Source: an uncultured virus (IMG/VR IMGVR_UViG_3300018878_000143) (lineage: Duplodnaviria; Heunggongvirae; Uroviricota; Caudoviricetes). From it: a stretch of 64,000 bases of DNA. The position numbers and the translations under genes are program-made. Of this stretch, positions 51,564 through 58,218 are shown in pieces. Numbering within the stretch: position 1 is the first letter of the stretch; the number at the start of each line of letters is the position of its first letter. The notes under the pieces were generated by a model that worked only from the letters and a program-made list of their open reading frames with translations, had not been told where the DNA came from and made no database searches. Where the stretch lies: IMG/VR virus record IMGVR_UViG_3300018878_000143, one strand, 5' to 3'.

Positions 51564-52139
51564 CTAATTGCTTTCAATGTTTGCTTTTGACTCTTTAATA
51601 AACGTACTTGCTTCGTCGGCCACATGAACCAGCCAAGCAAATGGGCAGCGTTCAAATGCATTTCCGACATCTTTGTTGCCATCCCAGGATGCCATGTGGC
51701 AGTTGATGGCTATCGCTTCTTCTGGTGTAAGCCTTATAAAGTTCTGGAGAATAAATACTGACTTACTGCCGTGTCCTCCGTAACAGAACTTTTCTTTGAT
51801 TGTGTAGGCATCGTAACTTTCCCATTGCCCAAGCTCATTCTTTCGATTCCTCTTTTCGCTGGTGTAAAGACCAACCTTACACAAATCATGGAATAGAGAC
51901 GCGATTACAATAGACTCTTCATCCACTCGGACTTCTGGATACGCTTGTAAAATGCGCTTTAATTCATCGTATACATTCAAAGAATGCTCAAGAAGACCAC
52001 CACTGTAGTCTCCATGATATTTTGTGCTTGCAGGTGCTGTGTAAAAATCACTTTTTTCCAGCCACCTCATCAGATCGTCGATGCCGTCGCGTTTGATTGT
52101 TGCGCAAAGTTCAAGAAATCGTTCTTTGTTGTTTGACAT
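51564..52139 (-). CDS. HD-domain phosphohydrolase
   Basis: FYTAPASTKYH...GGLLEHSLNV, HDLCK, GHG, HM, AD. Confidence 0.85.
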   Translation of the reverse strand: MSNNKERFLELCATIKRDGIDDLMRWLEKSDFYTAPASTKYHGDYSGGLLEHSLNVYDELKRILQAYPEVRVDEESIVIASLFHDLCKVGLYTSEKRNRKNELGQWESYDAYTIKEKFCYGGHGSKSVFILQNFIRLTPEEAIAINCHMASWDGNKDVGNAFERCPFAWLVHVADEASTFIKESKANIESN

Positions 52140-52164
52140 ATCATCACCCCTTTCATCCAAACTC

Positions 52165-52273
52165 GTGTTTTATATGGATAATAGAAACACTGCACACCTT
52201 CCACTTAATACCTAAATCAAGGCATTAAAAAGCACGCTCTAAATCAAAGTTTCCAAACCTTGATGAGCGTGTT
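52165..52273 (-). other. Structured leader/terminator upstream of the replication operon
   Basis: Stems at 52231-52273 (U-tract on -), 52205-52228 and 52165-52190. Confidence 0.5.
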
Positions 52274-52296
52274 GTTAAGCGACCAGATCGCAAAAC

Positions 52297-52503
52297 TCAT
52301 ATTAATTTTATATATTTTTCCTCAAGAGCTGCCGGGTTCTTGTCTTTTCCAAGCTTGACAAACTTCCCATCTTGCAGTGTATAGAGATAATAAAAATCCC
52401 TCGTTGGCTTTGATGTTGTGATGTAGCGAAGATTGTGTTCTTTATCGTAATAACTAACCCACACACTCTCTCCTTTTGGATATGTTAGTGCCACACTTTT
52501 CAC
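52297..52503 (-). CDS. Hypothetical protein
   Basis: 68 aa, AAGGAG RBS. Confidence 0.6.
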   Translation of the reverse strand: MKSVALTYPKGESVWVSYYDKEHNLRYITTSKPTRDFYYLYTLQDGKFVKLGKDKNPAALEEKYIKLI

Positions 52504-52523
52504 TCCTTAAAATTGAGCTAATT

Positions 52524-52555
52524 AAAAAAGAAGAAGGGCTTCCCCCTCCTTCTTT
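52524..52555 (-). terminator. Terminator after the MrpR-like gene
   Basis: Minus strand AAGAAGGAGGG-GGAAG-CCCTTCTTCTT followed by TTTT. Confidence 0.7.
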
Positions 52556-53486
52556 ATCTTGCAAATGCTGCTTTCCAACAACCGTAGTCATCAAACAAGT
52601 CGCGTCGAATTCCATTTGCTTCCTTATTTCTTGTGTAGTTCTTGTGGTATTTGTGATCCATCTGAGAAAGTCTTTCTTCAACAATACCATCAAAATTAAC
52701 TTCTTCGCCACATCGTTCCATCTCATATGCCTTGTAGAACAATCCAGACAGTCGGATTTTGTTATAGGTAGTTTCCACACCACATTCTTTAAATGCCTTG
52801 CCAATGCTTGCTCTTACAGTTGCAATTTTAATTTGCTCCGAACGAATACCTCGCATGAGGAGTTCTCCCGGATATCTATTTCGATATCCACCCTGCTTGT
52901 CTGATCCATAATTTGGGTTGATATAGCGGAATTGCGTAGCACTACATGCCATTTTAAATGTGGGAACCGCTTCACGATACAGTTCATAAGACCTTCCGTT
53001 GTGTTCAATTAACATCGTATCAAAGTCAATTTCGCAAACTTTGACATCCAGTGCATCTACATCCTTCAACCCCGCAAAAGCCATCCATAAATAACAACGA
53101 TAAAGACAGTCCACTGTTTCAGACTGGACTGGTGCAAACGCCTTGTTTAGTGTGGCTTCAAGATGCTTAGGCGACGCAATCATTAGACGGCGAACTTTTT
53201 CGTCCATTTCTGTTTTTAACAGATATACACCATCCCCAACTGGAAATCCTTCTTCCCTACACCAAGTTGTGTATGCGCGAAGAAATGCGATGGTTGAATC
53301 TGATGTTCTCGTTCGTGAACCAAAGTTGGAGTTTGCTACTGGCTGTAAAATCTCAATCGGTAGCTCACACAGATCCATCTTTGCCTCGTGTTCATAAGGG
53401 GCTATAGTCTTAAATACAGACTTACCAAATCCGACGGATGATCTCGTCTCTTCAAGGAACCTCATCTTGCGCTCTTCGTTGTACAT
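52554..53486 (-). CDS. MrpR (SPbeta YopR)-like repressor, degenerate tyrosine-recombinase fold
   Basis: MYNEERKMRFL...E....DLCE...FLRAYTTW N-terminal domain; LWMAFAGL; TYNKIRLSGLFYKAY; no HxxR/LGH catalytic set. Family recognised from memory and needs HMM confirmation. Confidence 0.7.
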   Translation of the reverse strand: MYNEERKMRFLEETRSSVGFGKSVFKTIAPYEHEAKMDLCELPIEILQPVANSNFGSRTRTSDSTIAFLRAYTTWCREEGFPVGDGVYLLKTEMDEKVRRLMIASPKHLEATLNKAFAPVQSETVDCLYRCYLWMAFAGLKDVDALDVKVCEIDFDTMLIEHNGRSYELYREAVPTFKMACSATQFRYINPNYGSDKQGGYRNRYPGELLMRGIRSEQIKIATVRASIGKAFKECGVETTYNKIRLSGLFYKAYEMERCGEEVNFDGIVEERLSQMDHKYHKNYTRNKEANGIRRDLFDDYGCWKAAFAR

Positions 53487-53495
53487 GACTACCTC

Positions 53496-53930
53496 CTATG
53501 CCGCACAGTTAAACTTCATAGACTTTCTCCATGCGTCCAACAAGTCCGCTTCGTTTAGAAAAGAAATCGCTGACGTTGCAATCAGATTAGCCATTGCGAT
53601 CTTTCTCATGTAATCATCGGAGAGCTTAGTAATGAACTTGCCGATTTTAGACTTAGACATCTTTTCAGGATTTTCACATAACACCATGCTATCCATGCGT
53701 AGACCAGTATCTGCAGCGTAGACAACCACGTGAGTTGGCTGCATTGCTTTTTTGATTGAACTTGTTAATGGCAATGCTATCACATTCGGGCTATGCGCGT
53801 TGCCGGTGTTGTTTTGGAACACCACGCCAGGTCTCCACCCGTTCTGCTCATTCCCGCTACCTTCAAACTTCATCAGGTAAACTTCTCCGATCATCGGAGC
53901 CATACGCACTTCGTGACGAGTCTCGCTCAT
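53496..53930 (-). CDS. mazF: MazF/PemK-family endoribonuclease
   Basis: GEVY...GNEQNGWRPGVVFQNNTGN.HSP.VI.LPLTS...PTHV...DS.VLCE; catalytic Arg and Thr positions kept. Confidence 0.9.
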   Translation of the reverse strand: MSETRHEVRMAPMIGEVYLMKFEGSGNEQNGWRPGVVFQNNTGNAHSPNVIALPLTSSIKKAMQPTHVVVYAADTGLRMDSMVLCENPEKMSKSKIGKFITKLSDDYMRKIAMANLIATSAISFLNEADLLDAWRKSMKFNCAA

Positions 53931-53959
53931 GTTCAGTCCCTCCTTATCTTGATGGGCTG

Positions 53960-53988
53960 ATTATATCACATAATGCGTATAATGTCAA
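53960..53988 (-). promoter_or_regulatory. Consensus sigmaA promoter for mazF-mrpR
   Basis: TTGACA-N17-TATAAT with extended TG. Confidence 0.85.
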
Positions 53989-54017
53989 CAATAATTTATG
54001 AAGTATTCCGAAATCTT

Positions 54018-54326
54018 TTAACTACACCTCAATGTGTACCTAACCTGAGTAGGTCTATCGCTCAATGTGTAGTCATTGCATAGAAATATGTATGATTGTT
54101 CATCGTCAGATCTTCTATGTCTTTTTATGGAACAAATATGGTTAAGACACATTCTTGCAGAACTACTTTTTAAGGCGATGTAAGGTGAGGCTGAAATATT
54201 CACAGCAATATGATCAAATTGGAGTGAAAACTTCAGTGGGCTAAGAGGATCATCAAACGTAACAATAATATCCTTATATGCTTCTGCTTCAATTCTAAAT
54301 TGCCCAAGAGAGAGATTCGACTTCAT
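54018..54326 (-). CDS. 102-aa hypothetical protein, probably SOS-induced
   Basis: GGAGGT RBS before ATG 54326. Confidence 0.7.
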   Translation of the reverse strand: MKSNLSLGQFRIEAEAYKDIIVTFDDPLSPLKFSLQFDHIAVNISASPYIALKSSSARMCLNHICSIKRHRRSDDEQSYIFLCNDYTLSDRPTQVRYTLRCS

Positions 54327-54348
54327 GTAGCATACCTCCAGATTTCTG

Positions 54349-54377
54349 TTGATTTTTGTTTGTTTGCGTGGTACACT
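54349..54377 (+). promoter_or_regulatory. sigmaA promoter for the antisense sRNA
   Basis: TTGATT-N17-TACACT with extended TG. Confidence 0.7.
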
Positions 54378-54383
54378 ACAGTC

Positions 54384-54501
54384 GTGAAGACATATTGCAG
54401 TATGTCGTTCACTTGCAGTGTTTTGCTGCAATGCCGCCTTGGGGTTTGGTGTATTCCTTTCGGGCGGGGAGGGCAAGCTTCGGCTTGTCCTCTTTTCTTT
54501 T
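54384..54501 (+). ncRNA. Candidate antisense small RNA of about 118 nt
   Basis: Promoter upstream; three hairpins (54384-54412, 54413-54431, 54434-54467); UUCG terminator 54469-54492 followed by TTTTCTTTT. Confidence 0.65.
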
Positions 54502-54530
54502 GCAAAGCATTACAGTTGCCACTTCATTTT

Positions 54531-54568
54531 CGAACACTTATTCGAACATTCGTTTGAATATGTGTTCA
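54531..54568. promoter_or_regulatory. Three tandem Firmicute LexA (Cheo/SOS)-like boxes
   Basis: CGAAC-ACTT-ATTCG, CGAAC-ATTC-GTTTG and TGAAT-ATGT-GTTCA at 12-bp spacing. Confidence 0.65.
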
Positions 54569-54576
54569 TGTTCCAT

Positions 54577-54605
54577 ATGCTAACACAAACAATTGGATGT
54601 GTCAA
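54577..54605 (-). promoter_or_regulatory. sigmaA promoter with start site abutting the SOS boxes
   Basis: TTGACA-N17-TAGCAT with extended TG. Confidence 0.7.
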
Positions 54606-54677
54606 GGTTTGGGAAACATAAAACTATTTGACAATTTCTTGAAAATTTATCAATAACAATAAAATATTGCTTAAGCC

Positions 54678-54715
54678 AAATAAAGAACAGAGCGACTGCG
54701 ATGGTCGCTCTGCCC
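54678..54715 (-). terminator. Intrinsic terminator
   Basis: Minus strand GGGCAGAGCGAC...GTCGCTCTGTTC followed by TTTATTT. Confidence 0.75.
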
Positions 54716-55365
54716 TATTTTAGACTCCACCGGAAACCGTATATATTATCCGTTAAAGCCTCTGGGTCTGCAATTTTCTGATAGTCATCCCAATAAAAAT
54801 CCATTCCTCGACTAACATATTTTTCAGTTAATGAATTAACCTCGTCGGGACCTACCACCACAATGAGACGAATAGGCACATCATGATTAACAAGCTCTTG
54901 TTCCACCCACCCCATGAGTTTCTTAAAGCATTTTCTCAATCGTCTGCCCTTGTCGGATACCTGAGACGGAAGATGCATGGTCGTTGGAAAAGCGCCTGAA
55001 ACAGAGCACTCCCATCGAGGTATCTTTCCCCTTTTTGCCATAAGCATTCTTAACGCCATGTCGTATTCAACCAAGTATTTGTTTTTAGGGTAGTATGAGA
55101 ACGCCTCAAGCTCATTATGTAATAAAACTTGAGAAAAAACATCGCTCAGTTCTTCCATCACTTCTTCATACTTACTTGGATCGTCAAGTTTCTCCTTTAG
55201 TAAAAGTTCAAGATTCCGATCTTCTGCAAACATTTTAATTCTTTCGTCTTGCCGTAAATTGGATGCAATAAGAGCATCTGTTTTGTACGACTCTTGTTTT
55301 TCGTTACCAACTTTAATTGTAATTATTAAAATAAGAACAATAGCTATGATCAAGGCCATACACAA
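54715..55365 (-). CDS. N-terminally membrane-anchored protein
   Basis: MALIIAIVLILIITIKV hydrophobic anchor. Confidence 0.7.
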   Translation of the reverse strand: MCMALIIAIVLILIITIKVGNEKQESYKTDALIASNLRQDERIKMFAEDRNLELLLKEKLDDPSKYEEVMEELSDVFSQVLLHNELEAFSYYPKNKYLVEYDMALRMLMAKRGKIPRWECSVSGAFPTTMHLPSQVSDKGRRLRKCFKKLMGWVEQELVNHDVPIRLIVVVGPDEVNSLTEKYVSRGMDFYWDDYQKIADPEALTDNIYGFRWSLK

Positions 55366-55372
55366 ACACCAC

Positions 55373-55603
55373 CTATGCTACCGCTTCATTAATGCTATCT
55401 TTTGCTTCATCAATTTTATCTATAGCATCTTCTAAATTGTCTATTGCGCTCTCCATGCGTTCGTAGCGCTCGCTGCTCTGGAGATTTTCTGGAAGGTTGT
55501 CTAAACAATCCTGTTCCTCGTCTTTTGCATCGCGAATAATACAAATTGCACTGTCAAGATATGATAATGCACGCCTAAGTGACTTTCTTCTATTCTTGTT
55601 CAT
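55373..55603 (-). CDS. Small coiled-coil protein
   Basis: MNKNRRK...DEEQDCLDNLPENLQ.SER, a pattern I recognise from phage hypotheticals. Confidence 0.7.
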   Translation of the reverse strand: MNKNRRKSLRRALSYLDSAICIIRDAKDEEQDCLDNLPENLQSSERYERMESAIDNLEDAIDKIDEAKDSINEAVA

Positions 55604-55955
55604 TCTCTCTTACCGCCTTCCATACACCGGAAACGGCGGCACCGATCATTAGAAACCCATCTTCTGTTGTGGACACATCCAGTGCATCAATCATCGAAAG
55701 AAGGTTGATAAATTGCTCAAGCCCATCTCGATACAAATCTACTGTTGGTACAACAACAGAAATTTTAGCAAACTCAGTGGTAGGCTCCATTTGAATGTCG
55801 GCAATGCCACCGTCGTTCTGCAATGAAAACTTACGAAGCTCTGAGTAAACAATACACAGTCGCTTATAATTGTCGATATCCAAAACATAAATCCCATCTG
55901 TTTTGGATGAAATTTCTTTTACCTTATCGTCAATGGTCTTCGTGTTTTCTGACAT
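55590..55955 (-). CDS. Hypothetical protein
   Basis: AAAGGTGGG RBS; first gene after the promoter at 55987-56015. Confidence 0.7.
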   Translation of the reverse strand: MSENTKTIDDKVKEISSKTDGIYVLDIDNYKRLCIVYSELRKFSLQNDGGIADIQMEPTTEFAKISVVVPTVDLYRDGLEQFINLLSMIDALDVSTTEDGFLMIGAAVSGVWKAVRENEQE

Positions 55956-55986
55956 AAATACTTCCCACCTTTCTTGCTGTTAAATT

Positions 55987-56015
55987 ATTATATCCCTGTA
56001 TGCTAACTTTTTCAA
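55987..56015 (-). promoter_or_regulatory. sigmaA promoter
   Basis: TTGAAA-N17-TATAAT. Confidence 0.75.
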
Positions 56016-56022
56016 CCAAATG

Positions 56023-56667
56023 TTACGATACAATTGAGCACTTGACATCAATACACACTTCAGTCCCAGCAGGCACCATTGAAGCCAAGGAGTTACAAAT
56101 CATATCCCTGCTGAACTTCCCATTAAAACACAGGCTAAACTCCGTCATTGCCATCCGTTTCGACTTGGACATATCATTAACATCAACAGAGTGTTTTACA
56201 TCACTTATGTTTGCCTCATCTCTTGGCAGAGGATCGTCAATAATTTGTTTCTCCTCTTGCAACAAATCGCAAGCCATAAACTTTTCAAACTCTTCACGAA
56301 GATTTTTGGGCATGCGCTTTCCTCTTGTGAATTTGATGCCGATTTCGTCACAACCGCAAAACTTTGTAACAGTCTGAGGTGCAATGCCAAACATAGTGGC
56401 AAGATCCGATGCTGTTGTTGAGTACTTGCGAATTAGTCCAAGAAGGTATTCTTTTTGAATATGTATGGGGAGCTTCCGGAAATCATCCCAAACCATAGGT
56501 CTCCCAAGTTGATAAGTCATTGTTTCTCCACACCTTTCTTTCCATTGTTTCTGAGTCATGTGATCAGTGGACAACGGACATTTTTTGCTTTTACTTCCGT
56601 TCTTACGATATTTTGCTTGTTGAGCAAGTCTTTTTTTCTGCAAAACATCGTAGTCAAAATCGTTCAT
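56023..56667 (-). CDS. Hypothetical protein with possible HTH
   Basis: TASDLATMFGIAPQTVTKF is HTH-like; AAGGAG RBS. Confidence 0.6.
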   Translation of the reverse strand: MNDFDYDVLQKKRLAQQAKYRKNGSKSKKCPLSTDHMTQKQWKERCGETMTYQLGRPMVWDDFRKLPIHIQKEYLLGLIRKYSTTASDLATMFGIAPQTVTKFCGCDEIGIKFTRGKRMPKNLREEFEKFMACDLLQEEKQIIDDPLPRDEANISDVKHSVDVNDMSKSKRMAMTEFSLCFNGKFSRDMICNSLASMVPAGTEVCIDVKCSIVS

Positions 56668-57084: not shown

Positions 57085-58218
57085 TTATCTCCTTCGTAAG
57101 TTTTTTACAGATTCAACGACGACACGGGCAGCATCGCGAACTTCTTCTAATGTTGTATATTTTGAAAATGAAATACGAATAGAACTCCTTGCTTGGTCGC
57201 TTGATAGTCCAATCGCGGTCAACACATGGCTTGGAACAGCCAAGTGTGCGGTGCAGGCCGAGCCTGCCGATACAACAACACCCTTACTACCCAAAAGTAA
57301 AAGTAATGTCTCTCCATCAACACCATCAAAACGCATATTTACAATTTTAGAATCTTTACATGGATCGCCGTTAATATAGACGCCCTGTAGCTCACTCAAA
57401 ATGTTGAAAAATTCTTCTTTTATTGTCTTGTAGTGCTCAGGTGTTTTATGGCATTCTCTATATACTCCCTCTGCAGCCGCTCCCATTCCAATAATTGCCG
57501 GCACATTTTCCGTTCCTGCACGAATCCCAAATTCCTGTTTTCCGCCAAAAATAATTGGATTCAACAAGTCTTTATTTCTTGCATATAGAAAACCAATCCC
57601 CTTTTGTGCGTGAAACTTGTGACCAGACGCAGACAAAAAATCGATGCAGAACTTGTCTACATCGATCTCGGTATCACAATATGCTTGCACACAATCAGTG
57701 TGAAATAAAACATCATTCGCTCTGCAAATCTGCCCAATGGATTTCGTATCCATCTTGTTGCCTATTTCATTGTTAATTCCCATAATAGAAACAAGGCCAG
57801 TGCCACCATGTATGGCGTTATCAACATCGTCTGGCGACACATACCCGTTTGAATCTACTGAAATATGTGTTACATCAAAACCATTATCAAATAGGTATTT
57901 TATAGGCTCTAAGACAGATTGGTGCTCGACCGTAGATGTGATGATATGCGTCTTACCTACCCGTCGCAAATAATCAGCCAAACCAACAATAGCCAGCGTA
58001 TTGGCCTCGGACCCACCGGAAGTGAAAATAATACACTCCGGATCAGCATTGATTGGTTTTGCAACTTGCTTCCTCGCTTTTTCTATGGCGTTGGCAGCTA
58101 AGCGTCCCATAGAATGAATGCTGCCAGGATTTCCATAGTTCAACGACATATATGGCAGCATAGCATCTATCACCTCTTGTGAGACTTTTGTTGTCGCAGC
58201 ATTATCAAGATAAATCAT
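57085..58218 (-). CDS. iscS: Cysteine desulfurase (IscS/NifS type)
   Basis: IYLDNAATT, GNPGSIH, FTSGGSEAN, EH, NNEIG, HTDCVQ, SGHKF (PLP Lys), RAGTEN, SAGSAC (catalytic Cys). Confidence 0.95.
   Translation of the reverse strand: MIYLDNAATTKVSQEVIDAMLPYMSLNYGNPGSIHSMGRLAANAIEKARKQVAKPINADPECIIFTSGGSEANTLAIVGLADYLRRVGKTHIITSTVEHQSVLEPIKYLFDNGFDVTHISVDSNGYVSPDDVDNAIHGGTGLVSIMGINNEIGNKMDTKSIGQICRANDVLFHTDCVQAYCDTEIDVDKFCIDFLSASGHKFHAQKGIGFLYARNKDLLNPIIFGGKQEFGIRAGTENVPAIIGMGAAAEGVYRECHKTPEHYKTIKEEFFNILSELQGVYINGDPCKDSKIVNMRFDGVDGETLLLLLGSKGVVVSAGSACTAHLAVPSHVLTAIGLSSDQARSSIRISFSKYTTLEEVRDAARVVVESVKNLRRR

Follow-up and report, generated by a model that had tools for sequence, protein, structure and literature searches.

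A candidate SOS-gated phage switch in front of a mazF-mrpR operon, opposed by a conserved antisense RNA

Overview

Positions 54018-54605 of a 64,000-nucleotide stretch of DNA (the window) from the virus record IMGVR_UViG_3300018878_000143 carry the elements of a candidate prophage induction switch. A leftward promoter, designated P(-), whose predicted transcription start is overlapped by LexA-type operator boxes, would generate a leader followed by the gene of a 102-amino acid (aa) protein; a small RNA (sRNA) of ~118 nucleotides (nt), encoded on the opposite strand, is fully complementary to part of this leader; genes for a MazF-like ribonuclease and an MrpR/SroF-like repressor follow. The sRNA is conserved, with compensatory changes in its stems, among large phage contigs whose gene order is similar, and LexA boxes are found at this promoter where relatives lack a phage-encoded self-cleaving repressor. 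On balance, the assembly is read as a LexA-gated small antirepressor of the MrpR-like repressor with the sRNA as its brake. A preliminary description had set out this anatomy, an SOS-type input opposed by a cis-antisense sRNA, from the letters of the stretch; each feature that it described is present in its place, and the anatomy is well supported by the sRNA covariation in 40 distinct relatives and by the LexA boxes at loci that lack the S24-type repressor; the function that it proposed for the 102-aa protein is plausible.

The window is taken from the - strand of a 104,404-base virus record that is estimated to be 88% complete, and the genes surrounding 54018-54605 are all on the - strand of the window. 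The carrier, which seems to be of gut type, is somewhat more probably than otherwise an uncultured ~104-kb phage of Clostridia-type bacteria.

Relatives of the locus

A search with the 102-aa family and the MrpR-like protein yielded 5+7 viral loci, one genome locus and 10 metagenome loci; a search with the MazF alignment yielded 154 viral relatives, 80 of which were fetched. The relatives come from large contigs, mostly of ~30-140 kb. An ATG-started open reading frame (ORF) of 72-136 aa ends just 5' of MazF in 73 of the 80 loci, and an MrpR-like gene whose product starts MYNE follows MazF in all seven broader loci that were checked and in 46 distinct sequences that were extracted. The phage record collection held no DNA match to the window and no tblastn match for the MrpR-like protein.

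A conserved structured RNA opposite the leader

Two features of a cis-antisense sRNA of the P22 sar/SymR type, a promoter of its own and a Rho-independent terminator opposite the target mRNA, are found in the sequence. The + strand promoter (8/12 consensus matches) falls under the threshold of the promoter scan and was read directly from the sequence; the block TTGATTTT-N11-GTGNTAYACTACA is kept in the window and in the relatives L007, L009, L013 and L014. A + strand terminator is listed at 54466-54495, followed by TCTTTTGC, and the terminal hairpin, rich in G+C, has a UUCG loop and precedes UUUUCUUUU. Folding of the RNA 54382-54503 gives four hairpins with an energy of -53.2 kcal/mol (z -6.1; none of 200 shuffles does as well); the complementary - strand of the region yields -36 kcal/mol (z -5.1). 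An RNA of ~118 nt with three hairpins and a UUCG terminator had been proposed, and the fold and the listed terminator agree with it; the TTGATT-N17-TACACT promoter proposed to drive it is in the sequence and is conserved in relatives. A scan for the promoter pattern brought up 22 viral and 113 genome stretches. Most of these occurrences are ordinary strong Clostridia promoters before tRNA, ribosomal-protein and other genes; it was therefore rejected as a marker of the sRNA, and what its frequency supports is promoter activity and a Clostridia-type host.

Among the seven sequences of the first upstream-region alignment, five keep the + strand promoter block and the four-hairpin region, with stems that differ in sequence; folded singly, the window and six relatives all form the same four hairpins (7/7, z -5.5 to -6.6). 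MAFFT alignments of the sRNA disregarded structure and were set aside, and a self-alignment of the window sequence, with its centroid structure, therefore served as the seed of a covariance model. The model was iterated twice over 72 sources (499,506 bases, both strands), its successive versions R1, R2 and R3 finding 11, 29 and 50 matches, the last one per source. For 48 sources the R3 match falls within the leader and runs antisense to the small ORF; these are the window, four loci with the small protein as anchor and 43 of the 65 with MazF as anchor. The remaining two (L060 and L109) have no small ORF adjoining.

Forty distinct sequences, in alignments that were fitted to the model and thus favour structure, have paired letters in 91.0% of pairing cells, compared with 59.3 +/- 1.0% when the 3' letters are shuffled. 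Every one of the pairs has changed on both sides (36/36), which answers the earlier suggestion that covariation be sought in related phages. The covariation score is 0.700 vs 0.205 for shuffled partners and 0.10-0.16 for partners slid by 1-3 columns. Support is strongest for the terminator (98% paired) and for helices 1 (91%) and 2 (83%), with helix 3 weaker (80%). G-U pairs occupy 123 of 772 cells and A-C only 12; a U-rich tail follows the terminal hairpin in 40/40 distinct matches, and an extended -10 element lies at most 53 nt upstream in 33/40. These three observations assign the conserved structure to the + strand and point to a terminated transcript. Together with the independent folding of single sequences, the slid controls argue that the covariation signal is real in spite of the fitted alignments. 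This comparison of sequences marks the sRNA as genuine, with a structure that is conserved on the + strand. Against Rfam 15, window positions 52000-56500 give no match at E <= 1, and seven related loci give none at the sRNA, their sole match being a tRNA in L230; the family numbers 40 or more distinct members, is absent from Rfam and is new.

The apical loops carry a family-wide U-G-Y-R-G-U motif (GUGGU in most), often in 2-3 hairpins of the same RNA. A concerted change of the motif within one RNA was considered and rejected: a 6-mer common to different loops is found in 10 of 42 RNAs, with a null expectation of 9.3 +/- 2.3. As an anecdote, L222 (= L017) and L220/L221 (= L033/L036) differ by the same base in all three loops, GUGGUUG three times vs GUGCUUG three times. 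A conserved CU-rich anti-Shine-Dalgarno or standby-site motif before the terminator was likewise dropped, being present in only 8/40.

The leader is ~244 nt long from the predicted start (about 245 nt had been proposed), and the full complementarity claimed for the sRNA extends over leader nt ~+70 to +186.

The proposed DNA-damage input

The promoter scan finds the leftward TTGACA-N17-TAGCAT promoter that had been described, with 10/12 matches and a TG before the -10 element; its -35 TTGACA is invariant in 7/7 aligned relatives. The three GAAC-N4-GTTY-like boxes described beside it prove to be abutting 12-mers, head to tail at a 12-bp pitch (54532/54544/54556), each one mismatch from GAAC-N4-GTTC. 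They begin 9 nt past the -10 hexamer and span ~+2 to +38 of the transcript. One-mismatch 12-mers of this kind number 32 in the whole window, vs 22.9 +/- 5.1 in shuffles; 14-mers within one mismatch of CGAAC-N4-GTTCG number only two (21 within two mismatches), both of them here and adjacent. Two features of a Cheo-type LexA operator of Firmicutes are found, the sequence match to GAAC-N4-GTTC/T (CGAACRNRYGTTYG) and the overlap with the transcription start. With GAACATTCGTTT, the middle box matches GAACnnnnGTTT perfectly; the available text of PMC4234289 reports this form for C. difficile lexA, recA and ruvC and gives clostridial LexA sites as GAACnnnnGTTT/C.

In all five close relatives the gene divergent from P(-) has HTH_3 and Peptidase_S24 domains. 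This combination denotes a CI/LexA-like self-cleaving repressor. A local S24 hidden Markov model, built from five Pfam-verified proteins (Pfam agreed in 7/7 spot checks), places such a gene at this promoter in 53 of 74 loci (73 relatives and the window). The window is without it: its 216-aa gene and the terminator of that gene abut P(-) instead, and the whole 104-kb record has no match to PF00717 (Peptidase_S24) or PF01381 (HTH_3). The two kinds of element tend to exclude one another. Within 450 nt 5' of the small ORF, a perfect GAAC-N4-GTTC occurs in 8/21 loci without S24 and 0/53 with it, and a copy with at most one mismatch in 15/21 and 1/53. Counted by lineage (clusters at >= 80% identity of the small protein), perfect GAAC-N4-GTTY occurs in 9/18 without S24 and 1/18 with it (Fisher p = 0.007). 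The perfect canonical Cheo boxes of the eight S24-less loci, which represent seven lineages, occupy the same place between unrelated flanks; the box begins 5-12 nt past the -10 element in L109, L218, L226 and L237 and sits in the spacer in L213. S24-bearing relatives have palindromic CAAACA/TGTTTG-type operators around the promoter. The sRNA co-occurs with S24-type and with LexA-type inputs.

Because relatives have the S24 repressor here, because LexA boxes appear where it is missing, and because the middle box is a perfect GAACnnnnGTTT, the conclusion drawn from these sequences is that the module takes in the DNA-damage signal at P(-) and that host LexA has probably replaced the phage S24 repressor in the window; that LexA binds the boxes is what we infer from their form and place.

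Other arrangements were met at the same promoter. In L160-L165, L010, L012, L155 and L156 the promoter of the S24 gene faces P(-), so that the transcripts overlap, and CAAACA/TGTTTG palindromes are present; face-to-face promoter switches are of a kind known from P2/186-like phages. The divergent gene of L207 (1289-2014, - strand) encodes not an S24 protein but a Peptidase_M78 (ImmA/IrrE-like) protein, a third kind of input at this slot; this family, too, is tied to DNA-damage-triggered derepression. L109 (1501-1760), on a 161-kb contig of a Clostridia metagenome-assembled genome (MAG), has the sRNA and its promoter as well as a promoter of P(-) type accompanied by a perfect Cheo box; on the other side the small ORF, mazF and mrpR are missing and a different, 377-aa gene adjoins. 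L060 has the sRNA and its promoter, again with small ORF, mazF and mrpR missing on the other side. Both arrangements could be prophage remnants or prophage ends. lexA was not found in the L109 host genome, an incomplete 1.6-Mb MAG, and the MazF match of that MAG was discarded as an ordinary 123-aa PemK.

The 102-aa protein

Twenty homologues accompany the window's protein, 19 of them of 102 aa and one of 98 aa, with 52-81% identity and 25 invariant columns, and on this conservation the gene is real. A public gene call (P0001, 152 aa, 54018-54476 on the - strand) takes as its start a TTG that lies within the sRNA region, 150 nt farther upstream; the exact length of 19/20 homologues argues that the ATG at 54326, and not this TTG, is the true start. 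The protein belongs to no Pfam or PHROG family, and a search of the Atlas gave no usable match. Its AlphaFold2 model (predicted local distance difference test score, pLDDT, 88) has one helix and eight strands. The top structural neighbour is B. subtilis YojF (1njh; Z 8.3, root-mean-square deviation 3.4 A, 95 residues aligned), followed by PH/EVH1-like domains at Z 5-6.5; Foldseek against PDB lists nothing at E <= 1e-3. The predicted fold is thus PH-like, YojF-like beta, which gives no function; neither Pfam nor the predicted structure has a helix-turn-helix (HTH) or Cro-like fold.

A hint of the partner comes from divergence. In 45 unique gene triples, pairwise identity averages 0.31 among the small proteins, 0.48 among the MrpR-like and 0.67 among the MazF-like proteins, and identity of the small protein correlates with that of MrpR at r = 0.957 and of MazF at r = 0.868 (partial correlations 0.82 and 0.22). 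Neighbouring genes share history, and co-divergence is therefore a hint rather than proof; it weakly suggests that MrpR rather than MazF is the partner of the small protein.

The mazF-mrpR operon and the boundaries of the module

The MazF-like protein matches PF02452 (2.1e-21) and phrog_1936. Against PDB, its family profile finds S. aureus MazF (4mzm, 3.8e-28) and B. subtilis EndoA (4mdx, 2.6e-27), with matches to position ~122 of 145; a conserved C-terminal extension runs ~25-30 aa past the PemK domain. Of the two components of a type II MazEF system, the MazF/PemK domain is present; the upstream co-transcribed MazE-type antitoxin (ribbon-helix-helix or AbrB fold, disordered tail) is missing, and Pfam and PHROG recognise no MazE-like gene in the module. 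The MrpR-like protein matches PF22822 (MrpR_N_CB) at 2.7e-10 (41.2 bits vs a cut-off of 27). Its family profile finds 9rd5 at 1e-6 and the YopR/MrpR structures 8bjv, 8bj6 and 8a0a with E values between 1e-4 and 1.5e-3, the matches extending from position 1 to 262/277 of 317. By these profile matches the 310-aa repressor is homologous to MrpR/SroF over the CB and catalytic-like domains. A crude repeat search of the window for a scattered MrpR operator motif gave no evident family. The preliminary description had reasoned that repressors of the MrpR type need another route of induction; the Sar-SroF pair of SPbeta/phi3T supports this view, so far as the available text of 10.1101/2025.11.27.690993 describes it.

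Directly 5' of mazF lies a perfect consensus promoter (12/12) that had escaped the preliminary description; it is kept in 6/6 aligned loci. With this promoter of its own, mazF-mrpR is independent of read-through from the SOS-box promoter. The picture of a single long transcript into mazF-mrpR therefore needs correcting. As had been described, the terminator scan finds no - strand terminator between the 102-aa ORF and mazF. A terminator after mrpR is found by a strict rule in 15/36 relatives, and several more are visible by eye. In several relatives (L218, L228, L230:4454-4524) tRNA genes follow this terminator, that of L230 recognised by Rfam and the others by eye. The unit between terminators, from 54716 to 52527 on the - strand, has a slightly better than even claim to be a lysis-lysogeny module of which 54018-54605 forms the input stage (Table 1). 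Its layout fits a maintenance operon (mazF-mrpR) with an inducible gene in front better than it does the opening of a long early lytic operon. Farther upstream, a 377-aa ORF (57085-58218, - strand) has by eye the look of a class-V aminotransferase/cysteine desulfurase of the NifS/IscS type, which would be an unusual auxiliary gene for a phage.

Table 1. Elements of the module and its upstream neighbour, in window coordinates
Feature	Position	Strand	Basis or remarks
216-aa gene	54715-55365	-	upstream neighbour of the module
Two-way intrinsic terminator, upstream module edge	54684..54716	both	ends the 216-aa gene; - strand site 54716..54684, + strand site 54688-54712
P(-), promoter of leader and 102-aa gene	54605-54577	-	TTGACA-17-TGtTAGCAT; 10/12 matches, TG before -10; predicted start ~54570
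Three abutting LexA (Cheo-type) boxes, predicted	54531..54568	.	12-mers 54532-54543, 54544-54555, 54556-54567
Leader of P(-) transcript, ~244 nt	54327..54570	-	sequence, leader fold
sRNA promoter, extended -10	54349..54377	+	TTGATT-17-TGgTACACT; sequence; block kept in relatives
Antisense sRNA, ~118 nt	54384..54501	+	fold, covariance-model matches, covariation
sRNA hairpin H1	54384-54412	+	fold
sRNA hairpin H2	54413-54431	+	fold
sRNA hairpin H3	54434-54467	+	fold
sRNA terminator hairpin with UUCG loop	54468-54493	+	fold; then U-tract 54494-54501
GGAGG ribosome-binding site of 102-aa gene	54337-54333	-	sequence
102-aa protein gene, candidate antirepressor of the MrpR-like repressor	54018..54326	-	ATG at 54326; 20 homologues
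Internal consensus promoter of mazF-mrpR	53988..53960	-	TTGACA-17-TGnTATAAT; 12/12 matches; kept in 6/6 loci
EndoA-type MazF/PemK homologue, 144 aa	53496..53930	-	PF02452; phrog_1936
MrpR/SroF-like repressor, integrase-like fold, 310 aa	52554..53486	-	PF22822; start overlaps mazF end
Intrinsic terminator directly after mrpR, downstream module edge	52527..52555	-	12-pair stem then T-run

Proposed mechanism and its alternatives

The favoured reading may be put as a sequence of events. In the lysogen, the internal promoter would make the MazF-like ribonuclease and the MrpR/SroF-like master repressor, and host LexA, seated on the three Cheo boxes over the transcription start, would keep P(-) shut. 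Upon DNA damage, RecA-stimulated cleavage of LexA would open P(-), generating the 244-nt leader and the mRNA of the 102-aa protein. The brake would be the sRNA, which we infer to be made constantly from its strong extended -10 promoter and to end at its own terminator. By analogy with known antisense systems, its most likely modes of action are formation of a long sense-antisense duplex, marking the mRNA for cleavage by a double-strand-specific RNase and decay, and interference between face-to-face promoters, here ~190 bp apart, which may add to the first. Leaky or brief firing of P(-) would accordingly yield no protein, and only a sustained SOS response would pass the threshold. The 102-aa protein would then inactivate the MrpR-like repressor, and possibly MazF as well, so that the lytic cycle ensues; its role would be that of Sar for SroF in SPbeta-like phages.

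Several facts sit uneasily with this scheme. It offers no explanation of why constitutively expressed MazF should be harmless in the lysogen. Every box in the window is one mismatch off GAAC-N4-GTTC, the head-to-tail spacing of 12 bp is unusual and also allows a reading as a TTCGAA repeat, and 9/18 S24-less lineages have no perfect box. The sRNA stops 47 nt upstream of the ribosome-binding site and does not overlap it, and the leader fold has neither an attenuator nor masking of that site. The sRNA is wholly missing from L010, L012, L155 and L156; its absence from the L010/L012 group makes it a dispensable, accessory layer. The 102-aa protein is slightly basic by residue count, and the fold searches list YojF and PH-like folds for it, not YopT (2DLB), although a family is not excluded by failing to be listed. 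To these must be added the bias of the covariation counts, already described, and the fact that the co-divergence test mixes the shared ancestry of neighbouring genes with physical interaction.

The 102-aa protein may be mainly a non-canonical antitoxin of the phage EndoA-type MazF, SOS induction then lifting an RNase that enforces lysogeny. The small gene lies directly 5' of mazF, the usual place of an antitoxin gene, in 73/80 loci; no MazE-like gene is seen in the module; the phage MazF closely resembles S. aureus MazF and B. subtilis EndoA; and MazF activity in phi3T favours lysogeny and is inactivated by AimX/YosL, according to the available text of PMC10769878. Yet the conserved promoter of mazF separates the two genes, so that the lysogen would make toxin without antitoxin; the small protein is divergent and MazF conserved (0.31 vs 0.67), with a divergence that tracks MrpR instead (partial r 0.82 vs 0.22); and the model of the small protein is compact, consists mostly of beta structure and lacks a MazE-like disordered tail. 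An antitoxin is on this showing unlikely, if still to be reckoned with. A distinctly more doubtful notion makes P(-) the early lytic promoter of a CI-like switch in which LexA has replaced CI, as in GIL01, and gives the 102-aa protein an early function unrelated to MrpR. In relatives P(-) does face the promoter of an S24 CI-like gene, with palindromic operators between them in the classic layout of an immunity region, and the genes downstream (HD-domain, ERF, SSB-like) are all on the same strand; against this, a strong terminator closes the unit after mrpR (also in 15/36 relatives by the strict rule), the conserved internal promoter drives mazF-mrpR, and the 102-aa protein has no HTH or Cro-like fold.

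The position of the sRNA relative to the ribosome-binding site, which it does not cover, raises the question of action in trans, as a decoy or substrate of the MazF-like RNase or as an immunity RNA of the P1 c4/P4 CI kind, with the overlap of the leader secondary. The family-wide loop motif, often present in 2-3 hairpins per RNA, and the occurrence of the RNA in L060 and L109 with no adjacent small ORF are what such action would lead one to expect. In 48/50 sources the position of the RNA is precisely within the leader and antisense to the small gene, loop-motif sharing is at chance (10/42 vs 9.3 +/- 2.3) and no second target was found, which leaves a main role in trans quite improbable. Very unlikely, finally, is that the GAAC/GTTC repeats are operators not of host LexA but of a phage protein, either for MrpR-like autoregulation or for an unrecognised regulator. 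The boxes, all imperfect, form a 12-bp tandem TTCGAA-type repeat that is atypical for LexA sites, and the available text of 10.1101/2025.11.27.690993 has SroF-type repressors binding long non-palindromic motifs as monomers. SroF sites are, however, scattered genome-wide, and searches of the 64-kb window brought up no further occurrence of the repeat; moreover the middle box is a perfect GAACnnnnGTTT, and eight S24-less loci of seven lineages have perfect canonical Cheo boxes in the same place. A bolder extension of the LexA-gated antirepressor scheme is a long shot: a four-part RNA-protein switch in which MazF, made together with MrpR in the lysogen, cuts the P(-) leader or other lytic transcripts, or is itself checked by the abundant sRNA with its shared U-G-Y-R-G-U loop motif, the SOS-induced 102-aa protein disables MrpR and MazF together, and the sRNA would be a new class of phage immunity RNA linking an RNase toxin to an integrase-like repressor, the input being a plug-in slot for S24, LexA or an ImmA-type protease.

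Comparison with known systems

The nearest functional parallel is Sar-SroF. As the available text of 10.1101/2025.11.27.690993 presents it, SroF (= MrpR/YopR) of phi3T and SPbeta is inactivated by the small antirepressor Sar (YopT, 72 aa, in SPbeta), which is expressed from a LexA-box promoter and whose gene lies one ORF from the repressor gene; LexA-controlled proteins that inactivate SroF in Bacillus are of 72-107 aa, SroF and Sar co-evolve as specific pairs, and phage use of host LexA is stated in general terms. Shared with the locus described here are a master repressor of integrase-like fold without a self-cleaving domain, the gene of a ~70-110-aa protein beside it behind a LexA-box promoter (LexA binding being predicted here), and the joint divergence of repressor and small protein as pairs. 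The differences are as plain. The window's protein has no sequence relation to Sar, is not acidic, and is predicted to be PH/YojF-like beta where Sar is an intertwined alpha/beta dimer; any likeness of the two is one of role and not of descent. Its gene lies upstream of the repressor gene with mazF between, whereas sar lies one ORF downstream; the module has an antisense sRNA in addition; in most relatives a phage S24 repressor is used instead of LexA; and the hosts are Clostridia-type, with no arbitrium genes seen near the module.

The off-switch of integrase-like (MrpR/SroF) repressors was solved only in late 2025 and only for SPbeta-like phages of Bacillus. To judge from the present locus, large uncultured phages that infect Clostridia of gut and rumen may follow this logic while employing unrelated parts. 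The locus also offers an exchange experiment made by nature: a single promoter has as its DNA-damage sensor an S24 repressor of the phage, LexA of the host or, in one relative, an ImmA-like gene. It gives a testable model of prophage induction for bacteria that are hard to grow. The covariance model can be used to annotate the switch in metagenomes.

In the immI region of P22, with its Mnt and Arc repressors, the antirepressor Ant is subject to sar antisense RNA, which covers the ant ribosome-binding site. The parallel is that of an antirepressor gene silenced by a dedicated repressor and by a small constitutive cis-antisense RNA that starts inside the unit. The window's sRNA pairs 47-163 nt upstream of the ribosome-binding site instead, the input here is of SOS type (S24 repressor, LexA, ImmA-like in one relative), and the RNAs and proteins are unrelated. 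The SymE/SymR and TisB/IstR-1 pairs of E. coli are chromosomal type I toxin systems in which LexA-repressed genes are opposed by constitutive sRNAs. They have the same double lock of LexA and sRNA, and IstR-1 also pairs far upstream of the ribosome-binding site; unlike them, the window has a soluble ~100-aa product in a phage immunity module and a fully cis-encoded sRNA with four hairpins. LexA-controlled antirepressors are known as Tum of coliphage 186 and from Gifsy and Fels-2, and in GIL01 LexA is itself the direct repressor of lysogeny. All of these phages use host LexA as a DNA-damage sensor alongside an uncleavable repressor of their own, as proposed here; their repressor families are unrelated to the window's, and we know of no antisense RNA layer described for them.

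The involvement of host MazEF with AimX/YosL of phi3T, as far as the available text of PMC10769878 covers it, links an EndoA-type MazF with the choice between lysis and lysogeny in a phage whose repressor is of SroF type; in the window, by contrast, MazF is phage-encoded in one operon with the repressor, and no MazE, AimR or AimP was found in the module. SOS control of an antirepressor and antisense control of an antirepressor are thus known already. What is new here is the sRNA family, a small protein unrelated to those described, an EndoA-type MazF carried by the phage in its repressor operon, and the exchange of DNA-damage sensors at a single promoter.

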